Below, piece after piece: positions 7,356 to 34,019 of a stretch of 64,000 nucleotides of DNA (its first letter is position 1; every line of letters begins with the position of its first letter). The notes beneath the pieces are model-generated. The model worked only from the letters and a program-made list of their open reading frames with translations. It was not told the origin of the DNA and made no database searches. The stretch is from Bacteroidia bacterium. Its GTDB lineage: Bacteria; Bacteroidota; Bacteroidia; SpSt-205. A program made the translations under genes and the position numbers. The stretch is from NCBI GenBank assembly GCA_025062295.1, contig JANXAJ010000001.1, forward strand, positions 36,167 to 100,166, in the 5' to 3' direction.

Positions 7356-8305
7356 TGCGGATAGCAATAGACGCCTTCGGTGGAGATTTTGCTCCGCAAA
7401 ACCCCTTGGAGGGGGTCCTTTCAGTCCTAGATGAGTTGCCTGCAGAAGTAGAACTATGGTTAGTGGGTCAGGTGTCTGAAATAGAGAAAACTGCTCGTCG
7501 GATTGGTCTTCCTCTCACAGGTACGATTCAAGTGCTTCCTGCAAGTGAAGTCATAGGAATGCATGAAAATCCTGCTCGCTCCATTGTCCAGAAGCCAGAT
7601 TCTTCTATTGCAGTTGGTATTCAGGCTCTTAAGGAAGGCAAGGTGGATGCCTTTATCAGTGCGGGCAATACAGGCGCTATTGTTGCTGCGTCGGTCCTCA
7701 AGTTGGGGAACCTGCCTGGCGTCTCTCGTCCAACTCTCGGCGCTTTTTATCCTTATGAAGAAAACAGGTATTCTCTTATCTGCGATGTTGGGGCGAATAT
7801 AGATTGCAAGCCCGAACACCTTGTGCAATTTGCTCAATTGGGGACGGTCTATATGCGAGAGGTGATGGGGATCCCTACCCCACGTGTTGCCTTGCTAAAC
7901 ATTGGAGAAGAGCCGAGCAAGGGGAATATCCTCGCTCAGCAGTCGTACGCTCTTCTTCAACAGCATCCTGATATTTACTTTGTAGGGAATGCTGAGGGAC
8001 GCGTCCTGACGCGCGGATTTGCTGATGTCTATGTAACTGATGGGTTCGTAGGGAATATTCTTCTCAAGTTTGGTGAATCTTTATATGAACTTTTACGAGA
8101 ACAAGTACCGCCCACGCCTATTTTAGAGCGGCTAAACTACGAGAACATTGGGGGGCTGCCTTTTATTGGGACCCAAGGCCATGTAATTATTGGGCATGGC
8201 ATTTCTTCACCGAAGGCCTTCAAGAATATGATTCGCACAGCGATTTCTGTAGTCAGGGCTCATCTAACGGAGAAGATAGCTTCTGCTTTTCGGGCTCATG
8301 TATAG
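7355..8305 (+). CDS. plsX: Phosphate acyltransferase PlsX
   Basis: MRIAIDAFGGDFAPQNPLEGV... 316 aa. Operon position between rpmF and fabH. Confidence 0.9.
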   Translation: MRIAIDAFGGDFAPQNPLEGVLSVLDELPAEVELWLVGQVSEIEKTARRIGLPLTGTIQVLPASEVIGMHENPARSIVQKPDSSIAVGIQALKEGKVDAFISAGNTGAIVAASVLKLGNLPGVSRPTLGAFYPYEENRYSLICDVGANIDCKPEHLVQFAQLGTVYMREVMGIPTPRVALLNIGEEPSKGNILAQQSYALLQQHPDIYFVGNAEGRVLTRGFADVYVTDGFVGNILLKFGESLYELLREQVPPTPILERLNYENIGGLPFIGTQGHVIIGHGISSPKAFKNMIRTAISVVRAHLTEKIASAFRAHV

Positions 8306-9278
8306 AGCTGCCATTACAGCGGTAGGGGCTTTTCTCCCTGAGCGGCGCCTCACGAATGCTGACTTGGAACGGCTTGTAGAAACCTCAGATGAGTGGATTG
8401 TAGAAAGAACAGGCATTCGTGAGCGACGGATCTTAGAACGGGGTAAGGGCAGTGCCTACATGGCGATTAAGGCTGCGGAAATGGCCCTTCAAAAGCGAGG
8501 GTTTCCACCAGAGGAGTTAGACTTAGTGATTGTAGCTACGGTAACGCCTGAGCATCCCTTTCCTGCCACAGCGAATCTTGTCTCCTCGGCGATCGGCGCC
8601 TCCCGAGCGTGGGGATTTGACTTAGAGGCAGCCTGTAGTGGTTTCATCTATGCCTTGAGTATAGGTGCCGATAGCATTGCGAGCGGTCGCGTCAAAAGTG
8701 CTCTGATTATTGGGAGCGACAAAATGTCCTCCATTATAGACTATCGCGATCGCACAACTTGCGTGATATTTGGCGACGGTGCAGGAGCTGTCTTGCTGGA
8801 GCCGACCCAGGAAGAAGTAGGCATCATGGACTACCTTCACCAGGCGGATGGGAACGGTTGCGTGCATCTGTGCATGAAAGCAGGGGGTAGCGTACTGCCT
8901 CCTTCTGTGCGAACTGTGCGGAATCGCCTGCACTACGTGTATCAAGAAGGGCGGCAAGTCTTCAAGCATGCAGTAGTTCAGATGGCAGCCGTGTCGGAGG
9001 CCCTAATGCACAGACATGGACTTTCATCGGAAGATGTAGCGTTCTTTGTTCCCCATCAAGCTAATCGTCGTATCATAGAGGCAGTGGCTCAGCGACTGGG
9101 CTTTCCTTTAGAGCGGGTGATGATTAACATTGATCGGTATGGGAATACTACCTGTGCGACCTTACCTTTATGCCTATACGATTACGAGAATCAGCTCAAA
9201 AAGGGAGACAATCTCATTTTAGCTACGTTCGGTGGGGGTTTTACTTGGGGAGCTTTGTGGCTACGATGGGCTTATTAA
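8298..9278 (+). CDS. fabH: 3-oxoacyl-ACP synthase III
   Basis: N-terminal AITAVGAFLPERRLTNADLERLVETSDEWIVERTGIRERR and catalytic-Cys context LEAACSGFIYAL. 326 aa. Confidence 0.9.
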   Translation: MYRAAITAVGAFLPERRLTNADLERLVETSDEWIVERTGIRERRILERGKGSAYMAIKAAEMALQKRGFPPEELDLVIVATVTPEHPFPATANLVSSAIGASRAWGFDLEAACSGFIYALSIGADSIASGRVKSALIIGSDKMSSIIDYRDRTTCVIFGDGAGAVLLEPTQEEVGIMDYLHQADGNGCVHLCMKAGGSVLPPSVRTVRNRLHYVYQEGRQVFKHAVVQMAAVSEALMHRHGLSSEDVAFFVPHQANRRIIEAVAQRLGFPLERVMINIDRYGNTTCATLPLCLYDYENQLKKGDNLILATFGGGFTWGALWLRWAY

Positions 9279-10183
9279 GCGCTTGTGGCTGGGATGAAGA
9301 CGAAGAGTATATCCCCACCTACACGGGTACCTACATACGAGTGGGGGATGCACTTTACTGGAGGTCTTCTGCAGGGGAGGTAGTTCGGCTCTCGCTTGCA
9401 GTTCGCTCTATTGCAAGCACGCCGTGGGGATTAGCGGCACTATCGGCGGATGGACAGACTCTATATCTTTTTGAGGCAGGCAAGCTTGAACCGAAACAGC
9501 GGTTTGATTTAGGGGAAGCCTGCTCGAGGGTTACAGCTTTTTTTGAAAAACCAACCCTTTGTCTTGCTTGTCCAAAAGGGATTCGCTTAGGGCGTAGTTC
9601 AGAGAAATCTTTCAATCCCCGTTGGGAATCTCTCCCACAGAGCGGGCTATTTTCTCATATTGCTACGGCTTCAAGCTTTATTATCGCTGCAGGGGGGGGC
9701 AAAGTTGCTGTATATGAACCCCAACGCTTTGCCCAAGTAGCTGCTGCCTCCTTTTCTGGGACCCCAGTAGGACTCTGGATAGAACATCCCACGAGTGCAG
9801 CTCTCAGTTGGCGCGATGAAACAGGGACTTTGCGTATCCTTTCCTATTTCCATCCTGGGCGGCTTTTCACTTATGATAGCATAGGGAAGTATATAAGCCG
9901 TCAGACCTCTCCTTATCTCAAACCTGCTATTGGTACAGAGTATAGGGGAAGCATAAGCCTTATGTCGGACAGTGTCCTTCTGCCTGGGGGGCATCGGCAT
10001 GTGAGCGGATTTACCGCAGATCTCCTCAGAGGTGAGGTCTTCTTTTTGCGAAAGGATACTGTATGGCGATATCAAGTCACTCTTCCGTCTTCTCTTGGGC
10101 AGGTAGGGATCTTCTCTGTCTCGGGTGAAATGGAAGGAGTGTGGGTATATCGTTACGGTTCGGCAGAGGTTACAATCAGATAG
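9170..10183 (+). CDS. Hypothetical lipoprotein (beta-rich), last gene of the rpmF-plsX-fabH string
   Basis: Lipobox LLSAC after a hydrophobic stretch. The start is uncertain: candidates at 9170 or near 9251-9260 all overlap the fabH 3' end. Contains a G8 tract at 9692..9699. Confidence 0.5.
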   Translation: MPIRLRESAQKGRQSHFSYVRWGFYLGSFVATMGLLSACGWDEDEEYIPTYTGTYIRVGDALYWRSSAGEVVRLSLAVRSIASTPWGLAALSADGQTLYLFEAGKLEPKQRFDLGEACSRVTAFFEKPTLCLACPKGIRLGRSSEKSFNPRWESLPQSGLFSHIATASSFIIAAGGGKVAVYEPQRFAQVAAASFSGTPVGLWIEHPTSAALSWRDETGTLRILSYFHPGRLFTYDSIGKYISRQTSPYLKPAIGTEYRGSISLMSDSVLLPGGHRHVSGFTADLLRGEVFFLRKDTVWRYQVTLPSSLGQVGIFSVSGEMEGVWVYRYGSAEVTIR

Positions 10184-11391
10184 GGGGGAGTAGAGGAGCT
10201 TTCACCAGCTGCGAGCCAGCGCTGGAGGGTATAGGCTCGTCCGGAGAGCCATACATAGAAGGAAGCAGGCTTAGGACGGCGTCCTAGGGCTATCTCCTGA
10301 ATGGGTTGAGTTAGCTCCCAAATCACTCGCTCACCACTAAATTCCCCAAATCCCCAACTGGCACTTGCCACTTCGCCTGTGGTATCTGCATAAAGAGCGA
10401 GGCTCGCAGGACGAGGATAAAAAGGATTGTAGCTAAAAGCTGTAGCCGAATCGCTGAACCAGAAGAGGCGAGCGGATAGGATGGGGCGCCTATAAAGCCT
10501 TTCCCATCCCTCTATGTGAAAGCGAATACCTACCGGCAGTCCACCCGCTACAAGGAGAGTATGGCGCCATAGTAGGCTGTCTTGTAGAAGTCTATCTCGC
10601 AGAGTATGCCCACCTTCTCGTACAAGGCTGAATGCCCATGTGCAGGAGTCTGTGATGAAGAAATCATACCGCTGAGGAGCTTCACCCGTTTGAATTTTCT
10701 CCCGATAATATACTCGTAGAACAGTGGAAACACTGCGAGGAAAGACAGTATAGATAGCAGCTTTGCGGTCAGAATTTAGGGGCTCAGCAGAGAGGTATAA
10801 GCCGGGAAAAGCGGTTTGAAAGGCTTTGTCTCCACTAAGAGCGGTAGGGGGCAAGCTAAGAATCTGTCGACCAAGTGAGGTGTCTAATGGAAACCGGTAG
10901 CCTCCAGGTCGGACAGTTGTGAAGTAAAGACTATCACGCCCGGGTAAGACAAGGTTCTGACCTTCAGTGAGGAAGGTAGATTCGGTGGTATAGGTCTGCT
11001 CTGCGGAGAGAGGATGAAGGAGCTTCTCTACTCGGAGACGCATAGGCGCAGAGAAGTCCCCATAACTGCTTGCAATAAAGAGCTCCAGAATAACTGAATC
11101 CACAGCTATCAGCTCTTGAGTAACGAACTGGACCCCATTTCCTCCTAAGGCAAAGTTAGTTGCCCACCCAGCTTTCCATCGCCCTGTAAAAGTGTCTTCG
11201 GTTTGTCCCATGAAGACAAAAGGCAGATTATTTGTGACAGGAGGGGGGAGGAATACTTGCTGAATGTGAGTCAGGTAAAATGTATCCTGACGGAGGGGAG
11301 GTGGCGGGAAAACTTCCTCTCCTATGCGCCGGGGGTTTCTACACTCATTCCCACACAGCGCTAAGAGAAGGAAAAGAGTCTTCTTTCTCAA
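10153..11391 (-). CDS. Hypothetical lipoprotein, DUF4270-like
   Basis: Lipoprotein signal MRKKTLFLLLALCGNEC, 412 aa. It lies immediately downstream of the short glycogen-synthase-like gene, a pairing I recall as conserved in Bacteroidota. Confidence 0.4.
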   Translation of the reverse strand: MRKKTLFLLLALCGNECRNPRRIGEEVFPPPPLRQDTFYLTHIQQVFLPPPVTNNLPFVFMGQTEDTFTGRWKAGWATNFALGGNGVQFVTQELIAVDSVILELFIASSYGDFSAPMRLRVEKLLHPLSAEQTYTTESTFLTEGQNLVLPGRDSLYFTTVRPGGYRFPLDTSLGRQILSLPPTALSGDKAFQTAFPGLYLSAEPLNSDRKAAIYTVFPRSVSTVLRVYYREKIQTGEAPQRYDFFITDSCTWAFSLVREGGHTLRDRLLQDSLLWRHTLLVAGGLPVGIRFHIEGWERLYRRPILSARLFWFSDSATAFSYNPFYPRPASLALYADTTGEVASASWGFGEFSGERVIWELTQPIQEIALGRRPKPASFYVWLSGRAYTLQRWLAAGESSSTPPYLIVTSAEP

Positions 11392-12184: not shown

Positions 12185-14224
12185 ATGGTGAGGACACTCT
12201 CGCCGACTCTTCTGAGTGAGGCCTATCAGCTTATGTGCTACACTGCTCATATGGCTCGGATCTATGATGAGCATCGGGAGTTGGCTCGGTATGTACATTC
12301 TACCTCACGGGGTCATGAAGCGATTCAGATTGCTGTAGGACTGTGTCTGCGTCCGATAGATTATGTCTATCCTTATTATCGGGATGAAGCAATGCTCTTA
12401 GCGATGGGATTTAGCCCCTATGAGCTTATGCTTCAGCTTCTTGCAAAAGCCGAAGATCCTTTTTCTGGGGGCAGGAGCTACTATAATCATGCAAGTGCTC
12501 GGCGGCCTGATCGTCCGAAGATTCCTCATCAATCCTCTGCCACGGGCATGCAGGCAATTCCAGCCACAGGAGCGGCTCATGGGCTACTCTATCTGCGGCA
12601 GCAGGGACTGCGCAGTGATGATGCGATTGTGGTATGTAGCTTAGGAGATGGGGCCCTGACTGAGGGAGAGGTCTCGGAGGCTTTTCAAATGGCAGTTTTG
12701 AAGAAGCTGCCCATTCTTTACCTTGTGCAAGATAACGGATGGGCTATCTCAGCAACTGAAGAAGAAATACGCGCAATGAGTGCGATAGAGTATGCGCGAG
12801 GATTTCCTGGTCTTGAGGTCTTCAGTGTATCAGAAGGGTATGATTTTTTGAGCTGTTATGCAGTGGCAGAGGAGGCGTTTGCATATGTTCGTAATTGGGG
12901 AGGTCCTGCCCTTCTATATGCTCGGGTTCCACTGATAGGACATCATACCTCAGGAGTGCGGCGAGAATGGTATCGTTCTCAAGAAGAGTATAAGGAAGCC
13001 CTTGCAAATGACCCCCGTCTCCTCTTGAAAGCCTACATAGAGACTCATCACCCTGATATAGACTTAGCACGAATAGAGAAGGAGGCACAAGAAGAGATTG
13101 AAACTGCATTTAGCCGGGCAGCTCAGGCGGCTGATCCAGACTCGGCGACTCTAAGAGAACATGTACTGGCTCCGACTCCTATCAAAGTGGAGGAAGGGGA
13201 GCGTTGTCCTGCTGGGGCACCTGAAGTGCTTATGGTTGATGCTGCTCTGCATGCTCTGGAAGAAATCTTGGCTCGCCATCCTGAAGCGCTCTTTTACGGG
13301 CAAGATGTCGGGCGACGCTTAGGAGGGGTATTCCGAGAAGCCGCTACCTTGGCAGAGAAATTTGGCGATCATCGCGTTTTCAATACCCCCATCCAAGAGG
13401 CCTACATCATTGGGAGCTGTGCGGGTATGGCAGCAGTTGGATGCCGACCGATTGTAGAGATTCAATTTGCGGACTACATCTGGCCGGGTCTCAATCAGCT
13501 CTTTACCGAACTCAGTCGGTCTTATTACCTTTCAAATGGAAAGTGGTCTATTCCTGCAGTGATTCGGGTACCTTGTGGGGCTTATTTAGGTGGTGGCCCC
13601 TACCATTCCTCCAGCATTGAGAGCATTCTTACTTCTATCCGAGGCATTAAGGTTGTTTATCCCTCTAATGCAGCCGATATGAAGGGACTCTTCAAAGCTG
13701 CCTTCTATGATCCTAATCCTGTTGTTATTTTGGAACACAAAGGGCTCTACTGGTCAAAGGTCCCGGGAACTCGGGCGGCAAAAACGCCTGAACCCAGTGC
13801 AGACTATGTGGTCCCGATTGGCAGAGCGCGCTGGTGGCTTCATGCCGAGGAAGAGCCCTCTGTCGCTATTATTAGCTATGGTATGGGGGTACACTGGGGG
13901 CTTAGTATAGCGGCTCAGTTTCCTAAGAGAGTGGGTATTTTGGATTTGCGAAGTCTTTCACCTCTTGATTACGAAGCTCTACACGAAGCGGCGCGCCGCT
14001 ATCATCGTCTTCTGCTTTTGACCGAGGAGCCACCAGCTCATAGCTTTATGCAGGCAGTCGCTGGATGGATAGCAGAGAATGCCTTTGAGTGGCTGGATGC
14101 TCCTTTGCGCGTGCTTGGAAGTGCTGAGGTACCAGCAGTTCCACTTAGCCTTTCGCTGGAAAAAGCCTATCTCCCTTCTTTAGAAGAGATAAGTCGCGCA
14201 GTAGAATTTCTCCTCTCCTATTGA
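12185..14224 (+). CDS. 2-oxoacid dehydrogenase E1 component, fused alpha/beta subunits (TPP-dependent)
   Basis: TPP motif GDGALTEGEV...LVQDNGWAIS in the N-terminal half and a transketolase-like beta half. 679 aa, typical Bacteroidota fusion. An internal Met start (MARIYDEH) is possible. Confidence 0.8.
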   Translation: MVRTLSPTLLSEAYQLMCYTAHMARIYDEHRELARYVHSTSRGHEAIQIAVGLCLRPIDYVYPYYRDEAMLLAMGFSPYELMLQLLAKAEDPFSGGRSYYNHASARRPDRPKIPHQSSATGMQAIPATGAAHGLLYLRQQGLRSDDAIVVCSLGDGALTEGEVSEAFQMAVLKKLPILYLVQDNGWAISATEEEIRAMSAIEYARGFPGLEVFSVSEGYDFLSCYAVAEEAFAYVRNWGGPALLYARVPLIGHHTSGVRREWYRSQEEYKEALANDPRLLLKAYIETHHPDIDLARIEKEAQEEIETAFSRAAQAADPDSATLREHVLAPTPIKVEEGERCPAGAPEVLMVDAALHALEEILARHPEALFYGQDVGRRLGGVFREAATLAEKFGDHRVFNTPIQEAYIIGSCAGMAAVGCRPIVEIQFADYIWPGLNQLFTELSRSYYLSNGKWSIPAVIRVPCGAYLGGGPYHSSSIESILTSIRGIKVVYPSNAADMKGLFKAAFYDPNPVVILEHKGLYWSKVPGTRAAKTPEPSADYVVPIGRARWWLHAEEEPSVAIISYGMGVHWGLSIAAQFPKRVGILDLRSLSPLDYEALHEAARRYHRLLLLTEEPPAHSFMQAVAGWIAENAFEWLDAPLRVLGSAEVPAVPLSLSLEKAYLPSLEEISRAVEFLLSY

Positions 14225-15606
14225 GTCTTTTTCCTGCAAAGTCTCTTCATCGGTGGTATCTGAAAGCTTTTCTTTGGCTTGTGTGTGGGGGGTGTGCCTC
14301 TATTTACCCTCCTGATGGCGGGCCTCCTGATACTGAGCCGCCCTCTCTCCGAAAGATTCGTCAATCATCCCGCGGGAAAACCCTTCACCTGTATTGGAAT
14401 GAGCACCTTTCTCTCACTTCTGACTTATCTGGCACAGGACTCTGGATGAACCCTTCCCTTCCTTTTGAAGCTGTGCTCAGAGGGAGGCGTATTCAGCTGC
14501 GGCTACTATTTGAGCCTAATTCTCAGAGGTGTATTAGTTTGTGGGGAGGACCAGGGCTGAAAGACTTTACTGAGCAGAATCCTCTTCCTCCTCAGCTTCT
14601 TTGGAAGAGCTGCTTAGAGGATACTTTTGCTTTCAAGGTTCCTCTTGAGCAAACGAATGGGGAGGCGCCTATATGGGCTCTTTTTTCCTGTAGCGAGCAA
14701 GCCTATCGGTTTTTAGGATGGCAGGGTTGGGTATATGCCGCAGGCCTGCCTTCTGATAGCTGCACGGGGTGGGCATGGCAAGACCAAGATAGAAATCAGC
14801 GATGGGACATCCATGAACCGGTGTGGCTACCCCCCTATGACCTTTTCCATGCAGCCCAAGATTCTTTTCCTCCTTGGCAACGTTTCTTCGTAGATACTTT
14901 CCCCCCAGCTTCTCCAAAGGTTCAGCTTCTGGATTCAATCTGGGCTGTTCTCTTTTTTCAAGAAGAGGTTTTCCCCAAGGGAGAGTATGTTTTCCCGCTC
15001 TCCGAAAGAGTCCTTTTGGTTCGGCAGGGGATGTCGTTTGCGGTTCAAGATTCCTTAGGGTTAGAAAGGGTGATACAAGTTCCCTTCAGTAGTGATACAC
15101 AGGGTTATGGAGTGAATGTTTTCTGGCCTTTAGATGTCAATGCTCGTACCCCCCTTATAGTTTTGCGCTGGACAGAGGAACTCACTTGTACAGATGCTTT
15201 TTGGGCTGCTCGGAGTGGGGATTCTCTTTTTGCCGCAGATGCATGTTTTGAAAGCAGGCAGATATGGCTTTCTCCCCTTCATCTTTCGACTGAGGTAGAG
15301 GCCTTTTTACATAAGGCGAACGGAGAGGTGTTACGCTTCCGGGTCCCTGGGAGGAAATATGCTGTGACCCTTCCAACTGTGAGTGGCGTCGCTCGATGGC
15401 GAGTATATGGACCCTCTCGTCTTTTCAGCGGCACCTGGGTAGAGGCTTTGCCCGAAGAGACCATATGGCTCCCAGCGGGAGATTATGCCATGATAGGGCT
15501 TGGCGTGAAAGAGGGAGCTTGGCATCCCGTTGTAATTAAGGAAGGTCGTCCATATCTGATTGCTCCTGTCGCTTCACCTCTCCAACGATTCAGGGTAGGC
15601 GAGTAG
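14221..15606 (+). CDS. Hypothetical lipoprotein
   Basis: TTG start overlaps the E1 stop (TTGA). Signal/lipobox FLWLVCGGCAS. 461 aa, no recognisable domain. Confidence 0.45.
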   Translation: MSLFPAKSLHRWYLKAFLWLVCGGCASIYPPDGGPPDTEPPSLRKIRQSSRGKTLHLYWNEHLSLTSDLSGTGLWMNPSLPFEAVLRGRRIQLRLLFEPNSQRCISLWGGPGLKDFTEQNPLPPQLLWKSCLEDTFAFKVPLEQTNGEAPIWALFSCSEQAYRFLGWQGWVYAAGLPSDSCTGWAWQDQDRNQRWDIHEPVWLPPYDLFHAAQDSFPPWQRFFVDTFPPASPKVQLLDSIWAVLFFQEEVFPKGEYVFPLSERVLLVRQGMSFAVQDSLGLERVIQVPFSSDTQGYGVNVFWPLDVNARTPLIVLRWTEELTCTDAFWAARSGDSLFAADACFESRQIWLSPLHLSTEVEAFLHKANGEVLRFRVPGRKYAVTLPTVSGVARWRVYGPSRLFSGTWVEALPEETIWLPAGDYAMIGLGVKEGAWHPVVIKEGRPYLIAPVASPLQRFRVGE

Positions 15607-15819: not shown

Positions 15820-16515
15820 TTATGGAAGAAACGATATCTGAAGCCGAAGTTCTATCCAGCTCGGTGAAAGGGAGTAGGAACGACGCTCCGACTGGAGCTG
15901 AAGGGTATCTCGTAAAAGTGAGTAGGTGAAGAAAGAAGGCTTACCCCACAGGAGTGGATAGCTCATGCTAATCCCAAATAGAGTTTTCTTGTTTTGAAGA
16001 AGGTCTACCCAGAGCGTAGGAGAGACCGCACACCCAATATAACTATTGCTTTCTATAAGGATTCGCAAAACTTCCCCTGATTTGAGGAGCAATTCCCAGG
16101 ATGGATAACTTACATAAGCAATGCGAAGATCCCCTGAGAATGCGCACCATAAGCCTGTCTTGAGAGGGAAGCGATATACAACACCTAACCCTCCTATATT
16201 TGAGAGGGGAGAACGGCTTCTCAGAGAGGAAATGGTTTCTTGAGACACAAAGCTGGAAAAAAAGCTCTGTTGGTTCAAAGACCATTGGATAAGCTGAAAA
16301 AATGGAAACCATCCAAGCCTGCCTTGACGATTGTAGTATTCTTTCGCTCCATACAGACCGACAGCATATCGGATGTGCCCCCCAGCAGGAAAGGGATGCC
16401 TCTTTTCCTGCCAAGCCCCCATTGGATATAGACCACTTCCTCCTATTACGAAAGGACGATACAGCTTTTGGGCAAAGATTAGGCTTAGACCTGCCAGAAA
16501 AGCTCTGCTTGCCAT
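15820..16515 (-). CDS. Hypothetical protein (beta-rich, possible outer-membrane protein)
   Basis: 231 aa with alternating aromatic/hydrophobic pattern. Slightly lower GC than neighbours by eye. Confidence 0.35.
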   Translation of the reverse strand: MASRAFLAGLSLIFAQKLYRPFVIGGSGLYPMGAWQEKRHPFPAGGHIRYAVGLYGAKEYYNRQGRLGWFPFFQLIQWSLNQQSFFSSFVSQETISSLRSRSPLSNIGGLGVVYRFPLKTGLWCAFSGDLRIAYVSYPSWELLLKSGEVLRILIESNSYIGCAVSPTLWVDLLQNKKTLFGISMSYPLLWGKPSFFTYSLLRDTLQLQSERRSYSLSPSWIELRLQISFLP

Positions 16516-16573: not shown

Positions 16574-17494
16574 CTATCGGTGAAAAAGAAGCATGCCTCC
16601 TGTTGTCAAGGCTGCAGCCCCAGCTAACTGCCATGTGAGCGGTTCTTGTCCGAAGGCAGCAGCCAGGAGGGCTGTCCCGATTGGCTGAAAGCTAATGTAC
16701 AGTGCAGTCTGGGTAGGAGTGAGATAGCGAAGACCTGCATTCAGAAGAAGGTAAGCCATAACGGACATCCCTACAATAAGATAAGCTAAACTCCACCATG
16801 GCCCTGGGCTCTCTGGGAAGGTAGCTTGACGTAGAAGACCAGCACAAAGTGTCGGGGTATGAAGAACTCCGCCGATAATCATCACCACGGTAGTAACCTC
16901 CATCGCTCCCATCCGACTCACGATAGGTGGAGAGTAGTTGAGGTACCATGCCCAAAATCCTACTGCCATAAGGATGAGTGTCCATCCCCAACCGTGACTG
17001 GCATGGAGGAGATTGTGCCAGAGAGCCAAAACGACCCCTCCATAAGCTAAGAGGAGAGCTCCGGCTTTTTGCCAGCGCCAGCTTTCCCTGCGAAAAATCC
17101 ATATACTTAGCCAGTAGACGACCGACGGCGTGAGGGCATAGATTAGGGCGGTCGTAGCAGCAGTTGTGTATCGGAGCCCCCAGTTAAAAAGCATTTGATT
17201 GAATAAAATGCCAACTATGGATAAAACAAATAATCTTTTCTTCCATTCTGTAGGAATATCATGCCATCTTGCTTTTATCCATTTTGCTTTCAAAAAGAAG
17301 GGCAGAAGAAGGCAGTAGAGGAGAGCACTGCCCCAAGCTCGTACTCCAGTCAAAAACAGGGGGTCAAAGGTTTGAGCTGCTTCGCGCCCGACGACATATC
17401 CTCCGCAAATGATCAGCGTCTGTCCTGTAAGAGCGAGGTGTCCTTTCCACCGCTCAATCCGCCTCTGTGAGGGGGTCAGGAGAGACGGTCGCAT
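16574..17494 (-). CDS. DMT superfamily transporter (EamA family)
   Basis: Ten predicted TM helices in two EamA repeats. The start was moved to MRPSLL (ATG 17494) because the longer ORF overlaps the upstream gene. Confidence 0.7.
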   Translation of the reverse strand: MRPSLLTPSQRRIERWKGHLALTGQTLIICGGYVVGREAAQTFDPLFLTGVRAWGSALLYCLLLPFFLKAKWIKARWHDIPTEWKKRLFVLSIVGILFNQMLFNWGLRYTTAATTALIYALTPSVVYWLSIWIFRRESWRWQKAGALLLAYGGVVLALWHNLLHASHGWGWTLILMAVGFWAWYLNYSPPIVSRMGAMEVTTVVMIIGGVLHTPTLCAGLLRQATFPESPGPWWSLAYLIVGMSVMAYLLLNAGLRYLTPTQTALYISFQPIGTALLAAAFGQEPLTWQLAGAAALTTGGMLLFHR

Positions 17495-19986
17495 AAGAGA
17501 GCAAAGTCGCAGGAATGGCAAGCCTGAAGGTCTTTTGTCATGGGGAATGCTGAACTGCCCTTCGGCAGTCCCTGGGCTATGTAAGAGCGGATTGTCTCCC
17601 ATACTTGGGCTATGCAGGGAAGCACCTCTTGAATCTCTGTCATCTGATAACTTTCATAAGGGAGGCGTTCTATTTGTGTGGGTCGGCGCGCTGGTCGCCA
17701 CCAGAGAGAAACTAAAGCGATTTTGTCGGGGGCTCTTCCCTTTGCATGGAGCATCCAAGCATAAAGAAGGATTTGGAAAAGTGAGTCTCGGTATGCCTCC
17801 CCAGCTTGGTAAGCTGAGTTCTGTAGGGTCCTACAGGAGGATTGGAGAGCCTCTGTTAGCTTTTTAGGGTCAGAAGCCTCTTTGGAAATGGCGGTCTTGA
17901 AGTCCAGCAATACTCGCTTCTCTTCACATACGCCTGAAAAGGGGTCTATACACTTTGCCTCTATAAGAAGGTCAACTCGTCCTTCAAATCCACAAGACTT
18001 GTCAGAAATGGTCATCTCAGGAAAAACTTGACAGTAGGTGTGTCGGTAAAGTCTAAGGAGATGCTGGCGTAAGGGTGAAAGTGAGGTCCTATCATAGAGA
18101 AGAGCGAGGAGTGTGTGAAGCAAAGGCTGACCTGCTCCTGCAAGTAAGGGGCGCAAGAGATGATAGCGACGATTCCACTTGAGAGGGAGATGAGAAAGAC
18201 GGTAGTATAGTCGCCTTTTGCTGAGACGATGAGCAAGGCGATAGAGAGAAAAGGAAGAGGATGGACGACGGAAAGCACTTCCAATCAGCTCATGAAGGAG
18301 TCGCCCAAGATAAGGAGCCTCCTTTAGAGAGCGGTCTTTCAATACCTGAGACCAATAGAAGCGGCGAGGACACACAAGAAACTGAGCTGCGTAAGAAGGA
18401 GAAAGCAGGGCAGGTGGCGATTCTATTCTTTCTCCCTCTATTGGATGGGAGGAAGGGAGTCGTACAGGTGTCCCTTGAGATATGTGGGGCTTCTCAAAGG
18501 TAGTTTCCAATCCAAAATAGTCCTTGTAAATGAGGAACTCCTCCACGGCAGAGATGTAGGCAGGGTCGCTGCGGCGCCAGATATGAATTTCTTTGCTTCC
18601 CCAGAGGAGCAAGCTCAAGAGACGCCAAGCCAGCTGGTGATGACGCTGAGGGGGATAAAAAAGCCGACGGACTGACGGAATCCAAAAGCTTGGACGATGC
18701 CATGAACCTAATGGCTCGGTAGGAGGTTCTATGATAAAAAGAGCATCATAGCATCCACCCGCTAACTGGGTCAGCCTTCCAATATAGACCTGTACCTCTG
18801 CTGGAAATAAAAGCTCCGACATGCTTTGGCTCTGAAGGAGGTGAAGGAGGATCTGCCACGCCTCCTGCTGAGGGGCTGCAAGTCGCTTTTGAACTACCTT
18901 ATACAGGTGCATAACCCACTGTTCAGCTGGGCTCTCAAGTGTGGCATCAATCTCAGGCCACTCAGTAAGAGTGCCCGCAAGTCCAGCTGGCATGAAATTC
19001 CGAAGGAATTGTCCGACTTGCGTAGTTTCCCAGAGGGAGGAAGATTCAGGAGAGAGTTTTTCTTTTCCTATAGCGGCTAAAAAGAACCGAAGTAGAGGCG
19101 CTCCTTCTCCTTCACACCAGACGCCAATACGCCCATCGGGATGCGCTTGGAAGTAGTTGATTATCGCTTCAGCGGCTTCCTTTATGACCTCTAAGAAGGT
19201 GCTTTGGGATTGAATAGAAACCTTTCTCTCACAAGAAGGCCAGCAGAAGGTCTTATGAGGCAAAGGGCTGCTTTCCCATACCTCAGGCAAAGCCTTGCGA
19301 AGGGGATGAAGGTCCCATCCCCACACTTCGGCGCCTCGTTCAGGGGCAAGGCGTAGAACCGCCTCCATCAGAGGAAAGGAGCTGTACAAGTGAATGAAGA
19401 TGGTTTTCTCCCACCGCATGGGGTGGGTAAGGAGACGATGGAGAGCCTCTTCAGCGAAAGCCAAGTCATGTCTTTTCAAATAGTCTTCGTAGGCTCTCAA
19501 AAAGGAGGTAAAGCTTTTCCAGAAAGTACGGGTATAACGAGGAGACTTGTAGGGAAAAGGCAGAAGACGAAGCCAGGTAGGTAGAGAATCACCCTCGTAG
19601 AGATGAAAAGCAGCCTGAATAAGCCGATGCTCTGATAAAAGCGACCAGTATCTATAAGCTTCCTGTATAGAAAGGCTTCCTTGGAGGACCTCCTCCCAAT
19701 CTCGTCCAAAGCGCTGGGCGGCCTCCCACTCTTCAGAAAAGCTTCCCTCAACGGTAATCCCAATTGCTCTCAAGCCTGCCTCATATCCTTCCAGAAGGTC
19801 TATAGGGTTCGGTTGGCGAAGGGAGCACCGCTGCAGTGCCCAAGTATAGATGTCCATGAAAGCAGAGCTTCCTGTTTCTGCGCCGAAGGCCCGAGCTAAA
19901 AATGGATCGGCAGTAACAAATACATACCCTTGGGAGAGGAGCGGTTCTATCCTCTCTCGAGCTTCCGTAGGTAGAATGCCCTTCAT
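17476..19986 (-). CDS. AddB-like PD-(D/E)XK nuclease family protein with C-terminal 4-Cys Fe-S nuclease domain
   Basis: C-terminal motifs in order: VCPRRFY (Cys-1), GRVDLLIEA (motif II Asp), LLDFKTA (D/E-x-K), QILLYAW (QxxxY), CHSCDFALLC (Cys-2/3/4). The N-terminal ~550 aa has no Walker A. 836 aa. Confidence 0.6.
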   Translation of the reverse strand: MKGILPTEARERIEPLLSQGYVFVTADPFLARAFGAETGSSAFMDIYTWALQRCSLRQPNPIDLLEGYEAGLRAIGITVEGSFSEEWEAAQRFGRDWEEVLQGSLSIQEAYRYWSLLSEHRLIQAAFHLYEGDSLPTWLRLLPFPYKSPRYTRTFWKSFTSFLRAYEDYLKRHDLAFAEEALHRLLTHPMRWEKTIFIHLYSSFPLMEAVLRLAPERGAEVWGWDLHPLRKALPEVWESSPLPHKTFCWPSCERKVSIQSQSTFLEVIKEAAEAIINYFQAHPDGRIGVWCEGEGAPLLRFFLAAIGKEKLSPESSSLWETTQVGQFLRNFMPAGLAGTLTEWPEIDATLESPAEQWVMHLYKVVQKRLAAPQQEAWQILLHLLQSQSMSELLFPAEVQVYIGRLTQLAGGCYDALFIIEPPTEPLGSWHRPSFWIPSVRRLFYPPQRHHQLAWRLLSLLLWGSKEIHIWRRSDPAYISAVEEFLIYKDYFGLETTFEKPHISQGTPVRLPSSHPIEGERIESPPALLSPSYAAQFLVCPRRFYWSQVLKDRSLKEAPYLGRLLHELIGSAFRRPSSSFSLYRLAHRLSKRRLYYRLSHLPLKWNRRYHLLRPLLAGAGQPLLHTLLALLYDRTSLSPLRQHLLRLYRHTYCQVFPEMTISDKSCGFEGRVDLLIEAKCIDPFSGVCEEKRVLLDFKTAISKEASDPKKLTEALQSSCRTLQNSAYQAGEAYRDSLFQILLYAWMLHAKGRAPDKIALVSLWWRPARRPTQIERLPYESYQMTEIQEVLPCIAQVWETIRSYIAQGLPKGSSAFPMTKDLQACHSCDFALLCDRLS

Positions 19987-20891
19987 TTCACTTGGAACTG
20001 ACCCCGCCCAATTTCTATCCCCTCACAGAAGACAGCAACTTGGTAGACTCCTTTATGAAGTTCTTGGTCGGTCGGTCGGTCATAAATTGCACATACTTCT
20101 TGGCTAATTCTATTGTAGTTGAATGAAACTTTGGCTGAAAAAGGCTGTTCTGTATCCATAAGCGTGAAATACCCGCTTGATTGAGCGAAGTTAGTGAGCG
20201 TTTTATTTGTCGGATCCGAGATAACGAGATATGCGGTGCGCTCGCCGGGTTCCGCCACTTCATTTTCTAATACCGTAAAGCAGATTTTGAGCCGCTGGAT
20301 TCGCCGAGCACGAAATTCTGTATCCCAGTCTTCTTTTCCGTTTTCCCGGATAGCAGCGAAACGAAAGCCAATGGCTTTGAGATAAGAAGCAGCTTTGACC
20401 TTGATTTCTAAGCGTTCTTTTTCTTGGAGGACTTGACGAGTCTCGCTTTCTTTACGCTCAATCTGCCTTTCCAGCTCAGCAGTCCGAGCCCTTAGGCGTT
20501 CATTTTCTTCTTCAAGCTGGCGGATACGCTCTTGATACTTCTGAATGTAGTAGGCCATCTGCTCGGTCTTATAACGCATTTCTTCTGCTTGTCGGGCAGA
20601 AATGCGTCCCTGTTCTTCGTACTGGCGGATTTTTGCCTTGGCTCGCTCTAACTCCTTAGCCAGCTCTTCGACTTTTCGGCTTTTCTCTGAAAGCTCTAAG
20701 TCTTTACGCTCAAGCTCCTGCTGCATTGCCAAGATGCGCTCGTCTAAAGCCTGGATGTTCGCTTCTAACTCGGTCTTCTCCTGTTCTAAAGCTGAGGTTT
20801 GCTTTTGCGCTTTCCGAAGCTGCCAGTATAGTACCCCGGCCGTGATAGAAAGCAGGACGATTAGAATGCCTGCGATGAGCCCTTGACGCAC
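19983..20891 (-). CDS. Membrane-anchored coiled-coil protein with globular C-terminal domain (unknown function)
   Basis: One N-terminal TM (IAGILIVLLSITAGVLYW), ~130 residues of heptad-rich E/K/R/Q coiled coil, then a ~140-aa globular domain. The stop overlaps the start of the nuclease gene (ATGA). Confidence 0.5.
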   Translation of the reverse strand: MRQGLIAGILIVLLSITAGVLYWQLRKAQKQTSALEQEKTELEANIQALDERILAMQQELERKDLELSEKSRKVEELAKELERAKAKIRQYEEQGRISARQAEEMRYKTEQMAYYIQKYQERIRQLEEENERLRARTAELERQIERKESETRQVLQEKERLEIKVKAASYLKAIGFRFAAIRENGKEDWDTEFRARRIQRLKICFTVLENEVAEPGERTAYLVISDPTNKTLTNFAQSSGYFTLMDTEQPFSAKVSFNYNRISQEVCAIYDRPTDQELHKGVYQVAVFCEGIEIGRGQFQVK

Positions 20892-20908: not shown

Positions 20909-21475
20909 TTGGAAGGGCGTCTCTTTTTTGTTAGGATAGATGTGCCTATCGCCATTCTATCAGCTACCCATCGTCCTCACAGTTATACTCGTCGGATTGC
21001 CCTCTATGTAGCGCGCCGATTGGAGGCAAAAGATTATACCTACCAATTTATTGATTTCCAAGCTCTCCCTCGAGAGTTTCTCTTCTCAGACCTTTTTGGT
21101 GAGCGTTCCGAGCGTTTTTTGCCTATGATAGAAGCCCTGGCCCAGTGTTCTTCCTGGATATGGGTGGTTCCAGAATACAATGGAAGCTTTCCTGGAGTGG
21201 TGAAAGTCTTTATTGATGCGCTGCCTCGCGAGGTTTTCAGAGGTAAACGAGCAGGGCTAATTGGGGTATCAGATGGTCGTTTTGGGAATCTTCGAGGTTT
21301 GGAGCATTTGATGGGTATCTTGCATTACTGTGGGATGGAGGTTGCTCCTTTTCGGGCTCATTTGATGCGTATCCAGTCTCACTGGAATGAAGAGGAAGGT
21401 CGTCCCGCCTCGGTGCTTGAAGAGGAGATTGAGACGTTTTTGGAACGGTTTCTCCCTGCGCCTATTACTGCTTGA
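20909..21475 (+). CDS. NAD(P)H-dependent FMN reductase family (flavodoxin-like fold)
   Basis: IAILSATHRPHSYTRRIA...WIWVVPEYNGSFPGVVKVFIDAL pattern. A GTG near 20940 is an alternative start. Confidence 0.6.
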   Translation: MEGRLFFVRIDVPIAILSATHRPHSYTRRIALYVARRLEAKDYTYQFIDFQALPREFLFSDLFGERSERFLPMIEALAQCSSWIWVVPEYNGSFPGVVKVFIDALPREVFRGKRAGLIGVSDGRFGNLRGLEHLMGILHYCGMEVAPFRAHLMRIQSHWNEEEGRPASVLEEEIETFLERFLPAPITA

Positions 21476-21496: not shown

Positions 21497-21578
21497 GCCG
21501 AAGTGGCGGAACTGGTAGACGCGCACGTTTCAGGGGCGTGTGGGGTTTCCCGTGTGGGTTCGAATCCCACCTTCGGCA
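21497..21578 (+). tRNA. tRNA-Leu (anticodon CAG), type II with long variable arm
   Basis: Acceptor GCCGAAG/CTTCGGC. Anticodon stem CACGT/GCGTG with loop TTCAGGG (U33, CAG, G37). T arm GTGGG-TTCGAAT-CCCAC. Discriminator A. CCA not encoded. Confidence 0.85.
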
Positions 21579-21602
21579 CTCAATCCCCCCTATCTTTGTC
21601 CA

Positions 21603-22115
21603 GTGATTCCCCCTCTGTATGTTGAGTGGCAGCACAAGGCTTTGAGCATCTTTCTTCAGAAAAAGGCTCTATATGGAGAAAGCTGGCGTGAGCTCTCCCT
21701 TCCCTCTTTTACAGACCTTCTATATATCAAAGCAAGTCGGATCCGAACTCTCCTGCAGGGGGACAGCCCCTCAGCTACGGGAGAGTCGCCTACAGCTGAC
21801 TGGCTGGCTTTGGTAAATTATGCGGCTTTGGCTCTGGCGAAACTGCGAGATTTAGAACCCCAAACCGCGCTCCCCCAATTGTATGAAGAGGCTCAAGCAC
21901 TCCTTGAAAAGAAAAATGCAGACTATGGCGATGCTTGGCAGCACCTTCGTCCCCTTGCCTTTATTGAATTCATCCTCATGAAGCTGGCACGCATTCGCCA
22001 AATGGATAGCAATCCCCAGAGTCATGCCCTTGCAATCACTGACAATCTGTTTGATGTTGTTAACTACGCCCTTCTTTACCTGAGTCGATATGGAGATCCG
22101 CTTGCTGCCCCTTAA
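21603..22115 (+). CDS. Conserved hypothetical protein (DUF1599-like?)
   Basis: The ORF-track start (21540) lies inside the tRNA; the in-frame GTG at 21603 is the first plausible start. Helical protein with no confident domain call. Confidence 0.35.
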
Positions 22116-23527: not shown

Positions 23528-23962
23528 GGTCCAAATATACCTTATATCGGAAGAGGGCGAGAGCCGCAGTGGTATGGCACCTCTCCATGGGATGAGTTTC
23601 AGAGTAAGCTTCAGGCGAAATATGCTCATGTTGCTATCCTTGAGGCTCTTGAAAGTCCCTACGAAGGGCGACTCATAGAATGGGTCTGGGAAATAGACAA
23701 GTATGATGGATTGATTATTAATCCCGGAGCCTTAGCTCATACCAGTTATGCTCTGTATGATGCCCTCCGAGGCTGTGGAAAGCCGTGTATTGAGGTCCAT
23801 TACAGTCAAGTTTATCGGCGGGAGCGCTTTAGGCAGCGCCTTCTCACCGCTAAGGCTTGCATGGGGGTCATTAGCGGACTGGGGTGGTTAGGCTATGAAC
23901 TTGCCCTTGTTGCCCTTTTGCGTCAGGAGGGGATCACTTCTATCTCTCTTGATTGGGATTGA
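23504..23962 (+). CDS. aroQ: 3-dehydroquinate dehydratase, type II
   Basis: MKRIRILHGPNIPYIGRGREPQWYG... LIINPGALAHTSYALYDAL... IEVHYSQ pattern. The 5' end overlaps the xerD 5' end by 24 bp on the opposite strand. Confidence 0.75.
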   Translation: MKRIRILHGPNIPYIGRGREPQWYGTSPWDEFQSKLQAKYAHVAILEALESPYEGRLIEWVWEIDKYDGLIINPGALAHTSYALYDALRGCGKPCIEVHYSQVYRRERFRQRLLTAKACMGVISGLGWLGYELALVALLRQEGITSISLDWD

Positions 23963-24897
23963 GGGGCTTTCAGAAGCCCAAGAAAGTGCAAGTAATATGC
24001 GACTCCCATCGCTATTAGGCAGCTTCCCATGAGTCCCAGCCCAATCAGCAAATAAGGATTGAGAGTATCAGGGTATACAGGCTCATATGGAGGTTGAATC
24101 ACAAAGATCGGTGTGGGATAAATGCGAATAAAATCTTCCCGACGGACTTTTTCCTCCATCAGGTTTGTGTAGATGTGCTGAAGCCTTACAAGGCGGGTCT
24201 CCATACTGAGGACCTTATCGTAATGGGCAAAGGCCTCCAGGGTAGGTATCAAGGGAGAGCGAACAGATTGCTCACTACCCCCAGTTATGATTTTATATTG
24301 AGTGCGCAGACGCGAAAGCTCTTCTTCAATGCGCCGAACTTCCCTGAGAAGCTCTTCAAGTTGCCGCTGAGTCTCAGCCAAGGCTTTCTCCATCCCAATG
24401 ATTTGTCGGCAAAAATTTTCGGTTCGTCTCAGAAGGAAAAGGGTAATCTCATACGCCATGCGTGGTACCCTATCATATACTTGAACCAGAATAGTCGCAT
24501 TTCTCGTGATGCGGACCTGTATATTCTGCTCCAGAATCCGTTGGATTTTCTTTGATCTTTTTTGCTCATCGGTCAGATGACTGATCTCATAGTGTGAATA
24601 AAGGTTGAATGTATCTATGAGCTCTCTGTACAGGGAGAAAGAATGGAGATAGCTATATATTCGCTCTAAATCACTTGCGCTTCCTGGTACTAAGGCTGCT
24701 TTCTCAAGCAGGGGGGAGGCCAGCTTGAAGTCTGGAGGTACAAATTCCATTTCGCATTTATAAACTTTTGGGAATGAGAAGACGGCATACGATAGGATGG
24801 CGGTTGATACGAGGATGAAAAGGGCTATTCCCTTCCAATACAGGATAACAACGCGAAAAAAGTGAGTTATAGAAGAGAAGGGAGGTTTGTCTTTCAT
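23923..24897 (-). CDS. Polysaccharide chain-length-determinant-like (Wzz/PCP-like) membrane protein, paralogue 1
   Basis: N-terminal TM, central coiled-coil region, C-terminal TM (LLIGLGLMGSCLIAMGVAYYL). Shares the CEMEFVPP... block with the adjacent paralogue. Confidence 0.4.
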   Translation of the reverse strand: MKDKPPFSSITHFFRVVILYWKGIALFILVSTAILSYAVFSFPKVYKCEMEFVPPDFKLASPLLEKAALVPGSASDLERIYSYLHSFSLYRELIDTFNLYSHYEISHLTDEQKRSKKIQRILEQNIQVRITRNATILVQVYDRVPRMAYEITLFLLRRTENFCRQIIGMEKALAETQRQLEELLREVRRIEEELSRLRTQYKIITGGSEQSVRSPLIPTLEAFAHYDKVLSMETRLVRLQHIYTNLMEEKVRREDFIRIYPTPIFVIQPPYEPVYPDTLNPYLLIGLGLMGSCLIAMGVAYYLHFLGLLKAPQSQSREIEVIPS

Positions 24898-25940
24898 AAG
24901 TTTGTGAATGCTGCAATGGATGCCGGGGAATCCATGTGTTTTTTTAGATAATGAAGGTAGAAGCTAAGGAGAGAAAGAAGAAGGAAAGTTACCGTAGCGC
25001 TGAGAGCTATCCATAGACTGGGACGAGGATAAGCTGGGATTTTAGGAGGGGTAGGAGGCTGAATGACCCACAATTTATCTCTATAGATGAGAAAGTGATG
25101 CGCTCTTTCCAAGCGGTATGAGGTCAGCTTAGATTTTAGTTCAATTAGGTGGGCGAGTGTGCGTTCTAAAGAAGCGACCTCATCATAGTGAGAGAGGGCT
25201 TCGGGAGTGCGCGAATCCCGAAAGCTAAGGTTCAATCGCCCAGCATCTGTCTGCATCAAGGTTACAATCCCATAGGAGCGACGAAGGGCAGAGAGTTTTC
25301 TATTAATCCCTTCTATTTCTTTATCCAAGAGCATTTCTGCTTCTGTAACCTGAACCGATATGGAACGGTCTTTGGTAAAAAACTCTATTTGCTCACGAAT
25401 CTTATCCAGCACAAATAGAGCCATACGATACGCATACATGGGGTCTTGGTCAAGAATGGAGAAGTGGAGGGTTGAGTTCCGAGTGATGCGAAAGCTGGTT
25501 CGGGACTTGAGCTCGGCGGCGAGGGCTCTGAGGAGACGAGTAGAGTCAGCTATATGGTTGAGCTTATAGTGTTCAGCCAAACGAAAACTGTCTATGACTG
25601 CTGACCAGAGAGCAGAGGACTGAAGATAGCTAAAAAACCGCTCCATGTCCGTAGGAGTGGCTGGAGCAAGCATAGGAGGAAGGTAAGATAGCCGTTCCAG
25701 CGATGGAGGCACGAACTCTACTTCACAGCGATACTCTTTAGGCTGTAGAAATTGCCAAAGCCCCACGGCGAGGCTTACCCCTAATGTTCCACCTATGATC
25801 CACTTCCACGAAGTGAGCCAACTTCTTAGATAGGGGTGTAGTAGGGGGGGAAGCCAAAGGCTCAGTTTATCCCACACCCTACAAAGGTAAGAGCACGAGT
25901 GAATAGGGAAAAAGTAGTTATTTTGATTTGTGCGTCGCAT
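24894..25940 (-). CDS. Polysaccharide chain-length-determinant-like (Wzz/PCP-like) membrane protein, paralogue 2
   Basis: Same architecture and collinear similarity to paralogue 1 (CEVEFVPPSLERLS..., C-terminal TM). Start placed at MRRTNQNN. Confidence 0.4.
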   Translation of the reverse strand: MRRTNQNNYFFPIHSCSYLCRVWDKLSLWLPPLLHPYLRSWLTSWKWIIGGTLGVSLAVGLWQFLQPKEYRCEVEFVPPSLERLSYLPPMLAPATPTDMERFFSYLQSSALWSAVIDSFRLAEHYKLNHIADSTRLLRALAAELKSRTSFRITRNSTLHFSILDQDPMYAYRMALFVLDKIREQIEFFTKDRSISVQVTEAEMLLDKEIEGINRKLSALRRSYGIVTLMQTDAGRLNLSFRDSRTPEALSHYDEVASLERTLAHLIELKSKLTSYRLERAHHFLIYRDKLWVIQPPTPPKIPAYPRPSLWIALSATVTFLLLSLLSFYLHYLKKHMDSPASIAAFTNL

Positions 25941-26625
25941 TGTGATTGCGATAGATGGATATGCAGCGACAGGGAAAAGCACAACGGCTCGGGGAGTGGC
26001 AGATGTATTAGGGTATCTCTATATTGATTCTGGAGCGATGTATCGTGCGGCAGCGTGGTACCTCTGGCAAAAGGGCATACGCTGCTTGGAGCAAATGGAA
26101 GAGAAGACTCTTATAGGACTTTTTCAGGACTTCAGCTTAGAGATGCGGCAAGAGGGGAGAGGGGTCAAGCTTTCTTTACAGGGGCGACCCTTAGGGGAGG
26201 AGCTTCGCAGGCCTGAGATTGGTCAGCTTGCTAGCTTAGTCGGTACAGTAGCATGGCTTCGAGAACGGCTTGTTGCAGAGCAGCGGCGGCTGGGGGAAAA
26301 GGGGGGAATTGTCATGGATGGGCGGGACATTGGTACGGTGGTCTTTCCTGAAGCCCCTCTCAAAGTCTTCATGAAAGCTGCTTTAGAGACGCGTGTAGAG
26401 CGTCGCTATCAAGAGTTAGCGGCGCAAGGGCTTCAAGTTAGCCGCTCTCATATTCAAGCCGAGCTATTGGAGCGGGACTACCGAGATGAACATCGTCCGT
26501 TAAGTCCCCTTCGTCCAGCACCCGATGCTCGGCTATTAGACACCACCTCTCTCACCATCCCCGAGCAAATCGCAATTGTTCTTCGTTGGGCTGAGGAGCT
26601 TATCTACGCGCCTCTAACCTCCTAA
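25930..26625 (+). CDS. cmk: Cytidylate kinase
   Basis: P-loop IAIDGYAATGKST and CMP/dCMP kinase collinearity. GTG start at 25930, or at 25942. Confidence 0.85.
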   Translation: MRRIVIAIDGYAATGKSTTARGVADVLGYLYIDSGAMYRAAAWYLWQKGIRCLEQMEEKTLIGLFQDFSLEMRQEGRGVKLSLQGRPLGEELRRPEIGQLASLVGTVAWLRERLVAEQRRLGEKGGIVMDGRDIGTVVFPEAPLKVFMKAALETRVERRYQELAAQGLQVSRSHIQAELLERDYRDEHRPLSPLRPAPDARLLDTTSLTIPEQIAIVLRWAEELIYAPLTS

Positions 26626-33979: not shown

Positions 33980-34019
33980 TGGGCAAATATGTTTATTTTG
34001 CCATACTTTATTTTTTCAG

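Follow-up and report, generated by a model that had tools for sequence, protein, structure and literature searches.

A divergent AddB-type nuclease, probably a subunit of an AddAB-class enzyme, is encoded between two membrane protein genes in a narrow lineage of Bacteroidia

Results

We analyzed a 64,000-nucleotide stretch of a Bacteroidia bacterium genome (GenBank assembly GCA_025062295.1, contig JANXAJ010000001.1, positions 36,167 to 100,166; the whole stretch is referred to here as the window), in which three minus-strand genes follow each other head to tail. According to the listing of open reading frames (ORFs), the first is a 302-amino-acid (aa) coiled-coil gene with a GTG start (19983-20891, minus strand) and the second is an AddB-type nuclease gene of 836 aa (17476-19986, minus strand), which is the subject of this study. 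The third encodes an EamA/DMT transporter (16574-17494, minus strand), most likely of 306 aa, a length that depends on the start codon inferred from homologues. The product of the central gene combines an inactivated UvrD-like helicase scaffold with a following RecB-family iron-sulfur (Fe-S) nuclease.

The junctions between these genes are tight. At the boundary of the coiled-coil and nuclease genes, the sequence gtgaaATGAagg contains an ATGA (19983-19986, minus strand) that holds both the stop codon of the former and the start codon of the latter. The maximal EamA ORF, with the first ATG taken as start, covers 16574-17602 on the minus strand and would overlap the nuclease gene by 127 nucleotides (nt). 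Starting at the in-frame ATG at 17494 instead gives a 306-aa protein and an overlap of 19 nt (17476-17494, minus strand) with the nuclease 3' end, which encodes LLCDRLS and the stop. Since EamA proteins of homologous loci are 299 to 306 aa long and the corresponding overlaps span 16 to 22 nt, the 127-nt overlap is probably an artefact of choosing the first ATG, and the real overlap is most likely 19 nt. The EamA product matched Pfam EamA in two stretches, one per repeat (PF00892, E value 2.8e-29). ORF coordinates and junctions thus agree with an earlier sequence-only reading of the locus, which had described three tightly coupled minus-strand genes, the shared ATGA and an overlap of the nuclease 3' end with the EamA start.

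The N-terminal ∼505 residues of the 836-aa protein (18472-19986, minus strand) form helicase-like alpha/beta domains without Walker A/B motifs, and residues 528 to 833 (17488-18405, minus strand) form a PD-(D/E)XK nuclease domain with four Fe-S cysteines, matched over exactly this span by Pfam PDDEXK_1 (PF12705, E value 1.2e-11). All five nuclease motifs on which the sequence-only reading had based its RecB-family/Cas4-like signature were found in canonical order: VCPRRFY at residue 538, GRVDLLIEA at 669, LLDFKTA at 693, QILLYAW at 738, and CHSCDFALLC at 823. In an alignment of 14 sequences of the nuclease family, the cysteines C539, C823, C826, and C832 were invariant, as were the catalytic D672, D695, K697, and Y742 together with E657 and H565, and Q738 was nearly invariant. 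More than 70 columns were invariant in total, many of them in the N-terminal part. The cysteine layout, with one upstream residue and a CX2CX5C at the C terminus, fits a predicted Fe-S cluster. The first ∼550 residues had been described as free of Walker A/B, and our motif check detected no Walker A anywhere in the protein or in 14 lineage homologues. The predicted structure was confident (predicted local distance difference test [pLDDT], 85.9), its best structural match was AddB, and its N-terminal part had the UvrD-like helicase fold minus the motor motifs, as in AddB.

An identical protein is listed at NCBI as a "PD-(D/E)XK nuclease family protein" from a Bacteroidia metagenome-assembled genome (MAG). 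Close relatives are few: a word-indexed search returned 15 proteins, and an exhaustive hidden Markov model (HMM) search of 1.8 billion representatives returned 17 relatives at E values below 1e-30. Among 185,579 species genomes we found 9 nuclease loci, each in a "Bacteroidia bacterium" MAG, and the isolate names of these MAGs suggest hot-spring sources. Beyond this close family, the HMM search gave hundreds of proteins of 920 to 990 aa at E values of 1e-9 to 1e-16. Their organism-named members are mostly Bacteroidota (Persicobacter, Bacteroidales, Lentimicrobium, Flavobacteriales, and Cardinium, plus one cyanobacterial MAG), and some are labelled "ATP-dependent helicase/nuclease subunit B" by the source databases.

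Homology to these longer proteins extends over the full length of the window protein. An alignment of the window family with a profile built from 17 of the 920- to 990-aa proteins (hhalign) reached a probability of 99.6% and an E value of 7.8e-25 over 787 columns, running end to end (columns 1 to 850 against 2 to 954) with the conserved N-terminal blocks pairing one to one. The structural comparison called for by the sequence-only reading led to AddB, and the profile comparison led to the Bacteroidota AddB-type family. The 17 sampled proteins have an xDYK motif and a CX2CX5C 2 to 12 residues from the C terminus, and none of them carries an N-terminal Walker A. Lack of Walker A thus characterizes the Bacteroidota branch as a whole and does not set the 836-aa protein apart; judging by these sequences, a retained Walker A is a mark of the Firmicutes AddB branch rather than of the Bacteroidota one. 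The window protein is ∼100 residues shorter than the 920- to 990-aa family, mostly through loss at alignment positions ∼280 to 420. Sequence searches of the PDB with the family profiles gave marginal matches to Cas4 and AdnAB for one profile and an unrelated weak match for the other.

Among described enzymes, the closest in layout is AddB of Bacteroides fragilis (BF2191), a protein of ∼957 aa with a VDYK motif, the cysteines C674, C946, C949, and C955, and Fe-S absorbance (PMC2887965). Like it, the window protein carries a RecB-family nuclease behind a helicase-like N-terminal region that is inactivated, has a single cysteine upstream and CX2CX5C at the very C terminus, and falls far short of Bacillus subtilis AddB in length. 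It differs from BF2191 in being ∼120 residues shorter (836 versus ∼957 aa), in having DFK in place of DYK, and in having no helicase near its gene, whereas BF2191 lies next to addA (BF2192). The length, xDYK, and C...CX2CX5C of the 920- to 990-aa family fit the published traits of BF2191, which would place it in that family; consensus identity between the window protein and the family is ∼15%. B. fragilis AddB rescues an E. coli ΔrecBCD strain only together with AddA (PMC2887965). B. subtilis AddB (PDB 3U44/3U4Q chain B; PMC3321194) is 1,166 aa long, is ∼10% identical to the window protein, and has a nucleotide-binding Walker A that the latter lacks. In RecC (PDB 1W36 chain C), the nuclease-like domain lacks both catalytic activity and an Fe-S cluster, whereas the window protein keeps the invariant catalytic residues and four cysteines. 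The Fe-S PD-(D/E)XK fold and the cysteine arrangement are shared with the nuclease domains of Cas4 and Dna2, but Cas4 is a stand-alone protein of ∼200 aa encoded in cas operons and Dna2 carries an active SF1B helicase, and the window protein has neither layout.

No helicase gene was found in the vicinity. None was seen among the window ORFs of at least 549 aa, and tblastn with a UvrD query detected none in the window (best E value, 3.3) or in the window plus 383 kb of related loci (best E value, 1.7); the query was validated with Pfam (PF00580, E value 1e-94). The absence of an SF1 helicase from the 64 kb, noted before from the letters alone, was thus borne out. The accompanying premise, that addA and addB of Bacteroidota are normally adjacent, did not hold up. 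The two genes do adjoin in B. fragilis (BF2192/BF2191; PMC2887965), but in five sampled loci of the wider family (a Bacteroidales MAG, Persicobacter psychrovividus, a Bacteroidia MAG, a Flavobacteriales MAG, and a JGI metagenome contig), no helicase lay within 7 to 8 kb in any case. Adjacency is therefore not general, and the "orphan" status of the window gene is not unusual. A DUF8428 or EamA neighbor was likewise seen at none of these five loci. In P. psychrovividus (AP025292.1; positions 7418-10961 of our locus L016), the AddB-type gene lies directly downstream of gldH, which encodes a gliding-motility lipoprotein, and a PSP1 gene, with no helicase nearby.

The upstream partner (19983-20891, minus strand) is a bitopic membrane protein of the DUF8429/DUF8428 family with a transmembrane helix, a long coiled coil, and an immunoglobulin (Ig)-like beta-sandwich. 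The hydrophobic segment covers residues 4 to 22 (20826-20882, minus strand; Kyte-Doolittle 19-residue mean, 2.37). In the AlphaFold model (overall pLDDT, 84.4), helices occupy residues 2 to 169 and the beta-sandwich occupies residues 173 to 301 (19989-20375, minus strand), with strands at pLDDT values above 90. This matches the single N-terminal membrane span, coiled coil, and globular C-terminal domain proposed from the sequence. A full-length query returned 43 hits, the identical protein and 42 homologues of ∼300 aa, all of which carry PF28532 and many of which also carry PF28533 according to their precomputed annotations. A protein search with the C-terminal domain alone gave no matches, so that the full-length query was needed, and our literature search found no paper mentioning DUF8428. 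Foldseek matched the C-terminal domain to the AlkC Ig-like domain (E value 4.6e-5), PA1606, and Wzt CBD, and from the model the domain is a generic Ig-like beta-sandwich.

Two cysteines of this domain, C204 and C267, are invariant among 22 coiled-coil homologues. In the model they fall on strands 3 and 8 (residues 200 to 207 and 264 to 271), which we read as the B and F strands. The canonical Ig disulfide joins B and F strands. The cysteine pair, with its putative disulfide, hints at a periplasmic Ig-like domain, and a domain with such a bond, being periplasmic, could not tether a cytoplasmic nuclease. The charge around the transmembrane helix is ambiguous, with the C-terminal side more basic in the lineage and the N-terminal side more basic in distant members.

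We surveyed the three-gene cassette in 12 related contigs besides the window. The coiled-coil gene lay directly upstream of the nuclease gene in 11 of the 12, with a 4-nt overlap or abutment as the junction, and wherever a contig extends far enough (11 cases), the EamA gene overlapped the 3' end of the nuclease gene; the overlap arrangement of the window was seen at L001, L003, L004, L005, L009, and L020. The exception was L009 (JANWZJ010000002.1), which has the nuclease and EamA genes without a coiled-coil gene at the locus. There, an apparent SUF Fe-S assembly operon, judged by its products, stands in place of the coiled-coil gene, divergent and upstream of the nuclease gene (8463-9920 and upstream). 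Outer flanks differed among contigs, and the three-gene core has thus been more stable than the genes around it. An FMN reductase-like gene, divergently transcribed in the window (20909-21475, plus strand; Pfam FMN_red, E value 3.4e-26), was divergent and upstream of the cassette in 8 of the 12 contigs, which makes it a frequent syntenic neighbor. On the other side, a tadA-like deaminase gene follows EamA at L004, L005, L009, and L020, in three of them with a 4-nt overlap; its place in the window is taken by a 231-aa ORF without a Pfam match (15820-16515).

This conservation is confined to one narrow lineage of hot-spring Bacteroidia MAGs, and elsewhere each gene occurs without the others. Coiled-coil relatives at 36% and 31% identity outside the lineage have glycosyltransferase or phosphofructokinase genes next to them and neither a nuclease nor an EamA gene in the vicinity. 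The neighborhood check thus gave a divided answer: the cassette is kept in 11 of 12 contigs of the lineage, but the coiled-coil and nuclease families are found apart outside it.

The three genes also diverge at very different rates. Across the lineage genomes, nuclease identity was 24 to 44% (loci L001 to L014 and L020), compared with 58 to 85% for the coiled-coil protein, 57 to 72% for EamA, and 64 to 71% for the FMN reductase of the same genomes. This contrast could reflect relaxed constraint or diversifying selection. The nuclease ORF was intact in every contig covering the gene (L012 matched in two segments and L013 ends at the contig edge), and the gene is not decaying, since its catalytic and structural core is invariant.

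Tight junctions were common in the window as a whole. Among 25 same-strand adjacent ORF pairs, 7 had 4-nt start/stop overlaps and several more overlapped by 8 to 20 nt, which indicates that the genome is compact and that its genes overlap pervasively. The overlapping pairs included apparently unrelated annotations. We therefore regard such junctions as the style of this genome rather than the mark of a special module and rejected the ATGA overlap as a sign of functional coupling.

The neighborhood is a housekeeping one, with genes for an E1 dehydrogenase, an xerD-like recombinase, aroQ, cmk, ispH, and a tRNA-Leu, and GC content is flat across the region, which gives no hint of a genomic island. 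A search of PADLOC-DB with the three proteins gave only weak Cas4 matches for the nuclease and noise from the coiled-coil regions of LmuB and JetC, with nothing for EamA. No viral contig was found to encode a relative of the nuclease, and no cas or defense genes were seen in the window. On these grounds, nothing specific in PADLOC, no viral relatives, and a housekeeping context, we rejected a defense-system reading of the locus.

Some further features of the window were recorded. The tRNA-Leu(CAG) gene (21497-21579) overlaps the 5' end of the maximal DUF1599 ORF (21540-22115), so the true start of the DUF1599 gene must lie further downstream. Two tandem minus-strand genes of 324 aa (23923-24897) and 362 aa (24894-25982) overlap by 4 nt and have no Pfam match; their products look like paralogues, with a common C-E-x-E-F-V-P-P motif and a C-terminal hydrophobic tail. 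Two more ORFs, of 461 aa (14221-15606) and 337 aa (9170-10183), also lack a Pfam match, and the former overlaps the E1 dehydrogenase 3' end by 4 nt. C-terminal sorting domains for type IX secretion (CHU_C and Por_Secre_tail) were present in two proteins of 952 aa each (33831-36689 and 47986-50844), which fits a Bacteroidota origin.

Discussion

We consider it probable, at roughly 60%, that the 836-aa protein is a divergent AddB, that its AddA partner has its gene at another site in the genome, and that the nuclease gene shares a lineage-specific operon with genes for membrane proteins of unrelated function. Such a protein would belong to a helicase-nuclease of the AddAB class, which resects double-strand DNA breaks, and would be its AddB-type, non-motor subunit. 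By analogy with known enzymes, the N-terminal ∼500 residues, a UvrD-like fold without ATPase motifs, would serve as a scaffold and single-strand-scanning domain, and the C-terminal PD-(D/E)XK domain, stapled by the four-cysteine Fe-S cluster, would bind the DNA end and cut the 5'-terminated strand. The motor and a second nuclease would be supplied by AddA from another place in the genome. Neither the coiled-coil/Ig-like protein nor the EamA transporter would then be part of the enzyme; both would be co-transcribed neighbors that became fixed in one compact-genome lineage. Starting from the fold, motifs, Bacteroidota AddB-type homology, and gene contexts described above, we infer that AddA exists, that the protein has this activity, and that no function links it to the neighbors. 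The sequence-only reading had left two alternatives, an AddB with its partner elsewhere and a helicase-independent module tethered to the membrane; the former is favored by the best structural match to AddB, the full-length profile homology, and the family-wide lack of both Walker A and an adjacent helicase, and the latter is weakened.

Several observations weigh against a divergent AddB with a distant partner. The protein is ∼100 residues shorter than a typical Bacteroidota AddB and matches that family weakly by HMM (E values of 1e-9 to 1e-16). An NCBIfam scan returned no AddB model at E values up to 0.1, and its sole match, to Cas4, was far below the cutoff. The curated NCBIfam AddB models represent AddB of Gram-positive bacteria and alphaproteobacteria. 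No addA was seen in the 64-kb window or the 383 kb of related loci, so that the AddA partner is an assumption. The contrast between nuclease and neighbors (24 to 44% versus 57 to 85% identity) is large for genes of one operon. The persistence of the coiled-coil/nuclease/EamA core through changes in its outer flanks would also fit a functional operon.

The rate contrast would also suit an AddB homologue on which constraint has relaxed or shifted, for example a redundant paralogue, a partner of another SF1 helicase, or a gene nearing loss, kept in place mainly by its overlaps with both neighbors. The shortening by ∼100 residues points in the same direction, and overlaps on both sides would make excision costly. 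However, more than 70 invariant columns in 14 sequences, including all catalytic and Fe-S residues and many N-terminal positions, an ORF that is intact wherever the gene is covered, and a confident model (pLDDT, 85.9) weigh against this explanation. In addition, AddB and RecC proteins are poorly conserved in general. The AddB proteins of B. fragilis and B. subtilis are 16% identical (PMC2887965). We regard relaxed constraint as possible but unlikely. Similarity to Cas4 raises another explanation, a Cas4-like or other defense-associated nuclease, which could draw on the TIGR00372 score of 15.6 bits and on PADLOC Cas4 models matching at E values of 7e-4 to 6e-3. That score compares with a cutoff of 65 bits, the similarity is confined to the common nuclease fold, and the protein has four times the length of Cas4 and a helicase-like N-terminal region. 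With neither cas or defense genes nearby nor viral relatives, family scores and gene context effectively refute a Cas4 identity, and the whole explanation is hardly credible.

A more far-reaching alternative is an AddB-derived nuclease that works without AddA in a lineage-specific membrane module, where the coiled-coil/Ig-like protein tethers or regulates it at the inner membrane and EamA is co-expressed, for membrane-proximal repair or DNA surveillance. The retention of the cassette with tight junctions in 11 of 12 contigs, even at 24 to 28% nuclease identity and with differing outer flanks, would be explained by such a module, as would the lack of a helicase both in the window and in the 10 kb around every homologue. 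In the lineage, the residues after the transmembrane helix (R26, K27, and K30) are more basic than those before it, which would point to a cytoplasmic coiled coil. Yet the conservation ends with this one lineage, outside which the nuclease and coiled-coil families are separate, and within it L009 does without the coiled-coil gene at the locus. The parent family normally has no adjacent helicase, many genes of the genome overlap by 4 nt, and PADLOC gave no match. The position of C204 and C267 on B and F strands suggests a periplasmic disulfide, on the wrong side of the membrane for a tether, and a retained inactive-helicase scaffold is typical of a non-motor subunit within a helicase complex. 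We therefore judge this module improbable. Still more doubtful is its boldest form, in which an Fe-S nuclease derived from AddB and detached from AddA, together with the coiled-coil/Ig-like protein and perhaps EamA, makes up a membrane-proximal DNA-processing or surveillance module whose fast divergence is the trace of an arms race.

Read as a divergent AddB, the protein extends the AddB family by one short and divergent clade. Because addB is commonly unlinked from addA in Bacteroidota, an "orphan" AddB is no signal of novelty there. Should it be true that genomes of this lineage lack AddA, an AddB scaffold that works without its motor and whose gene shares a conserved operon with that of a membrane protein would mean that enzymes of this class can act in a new way.

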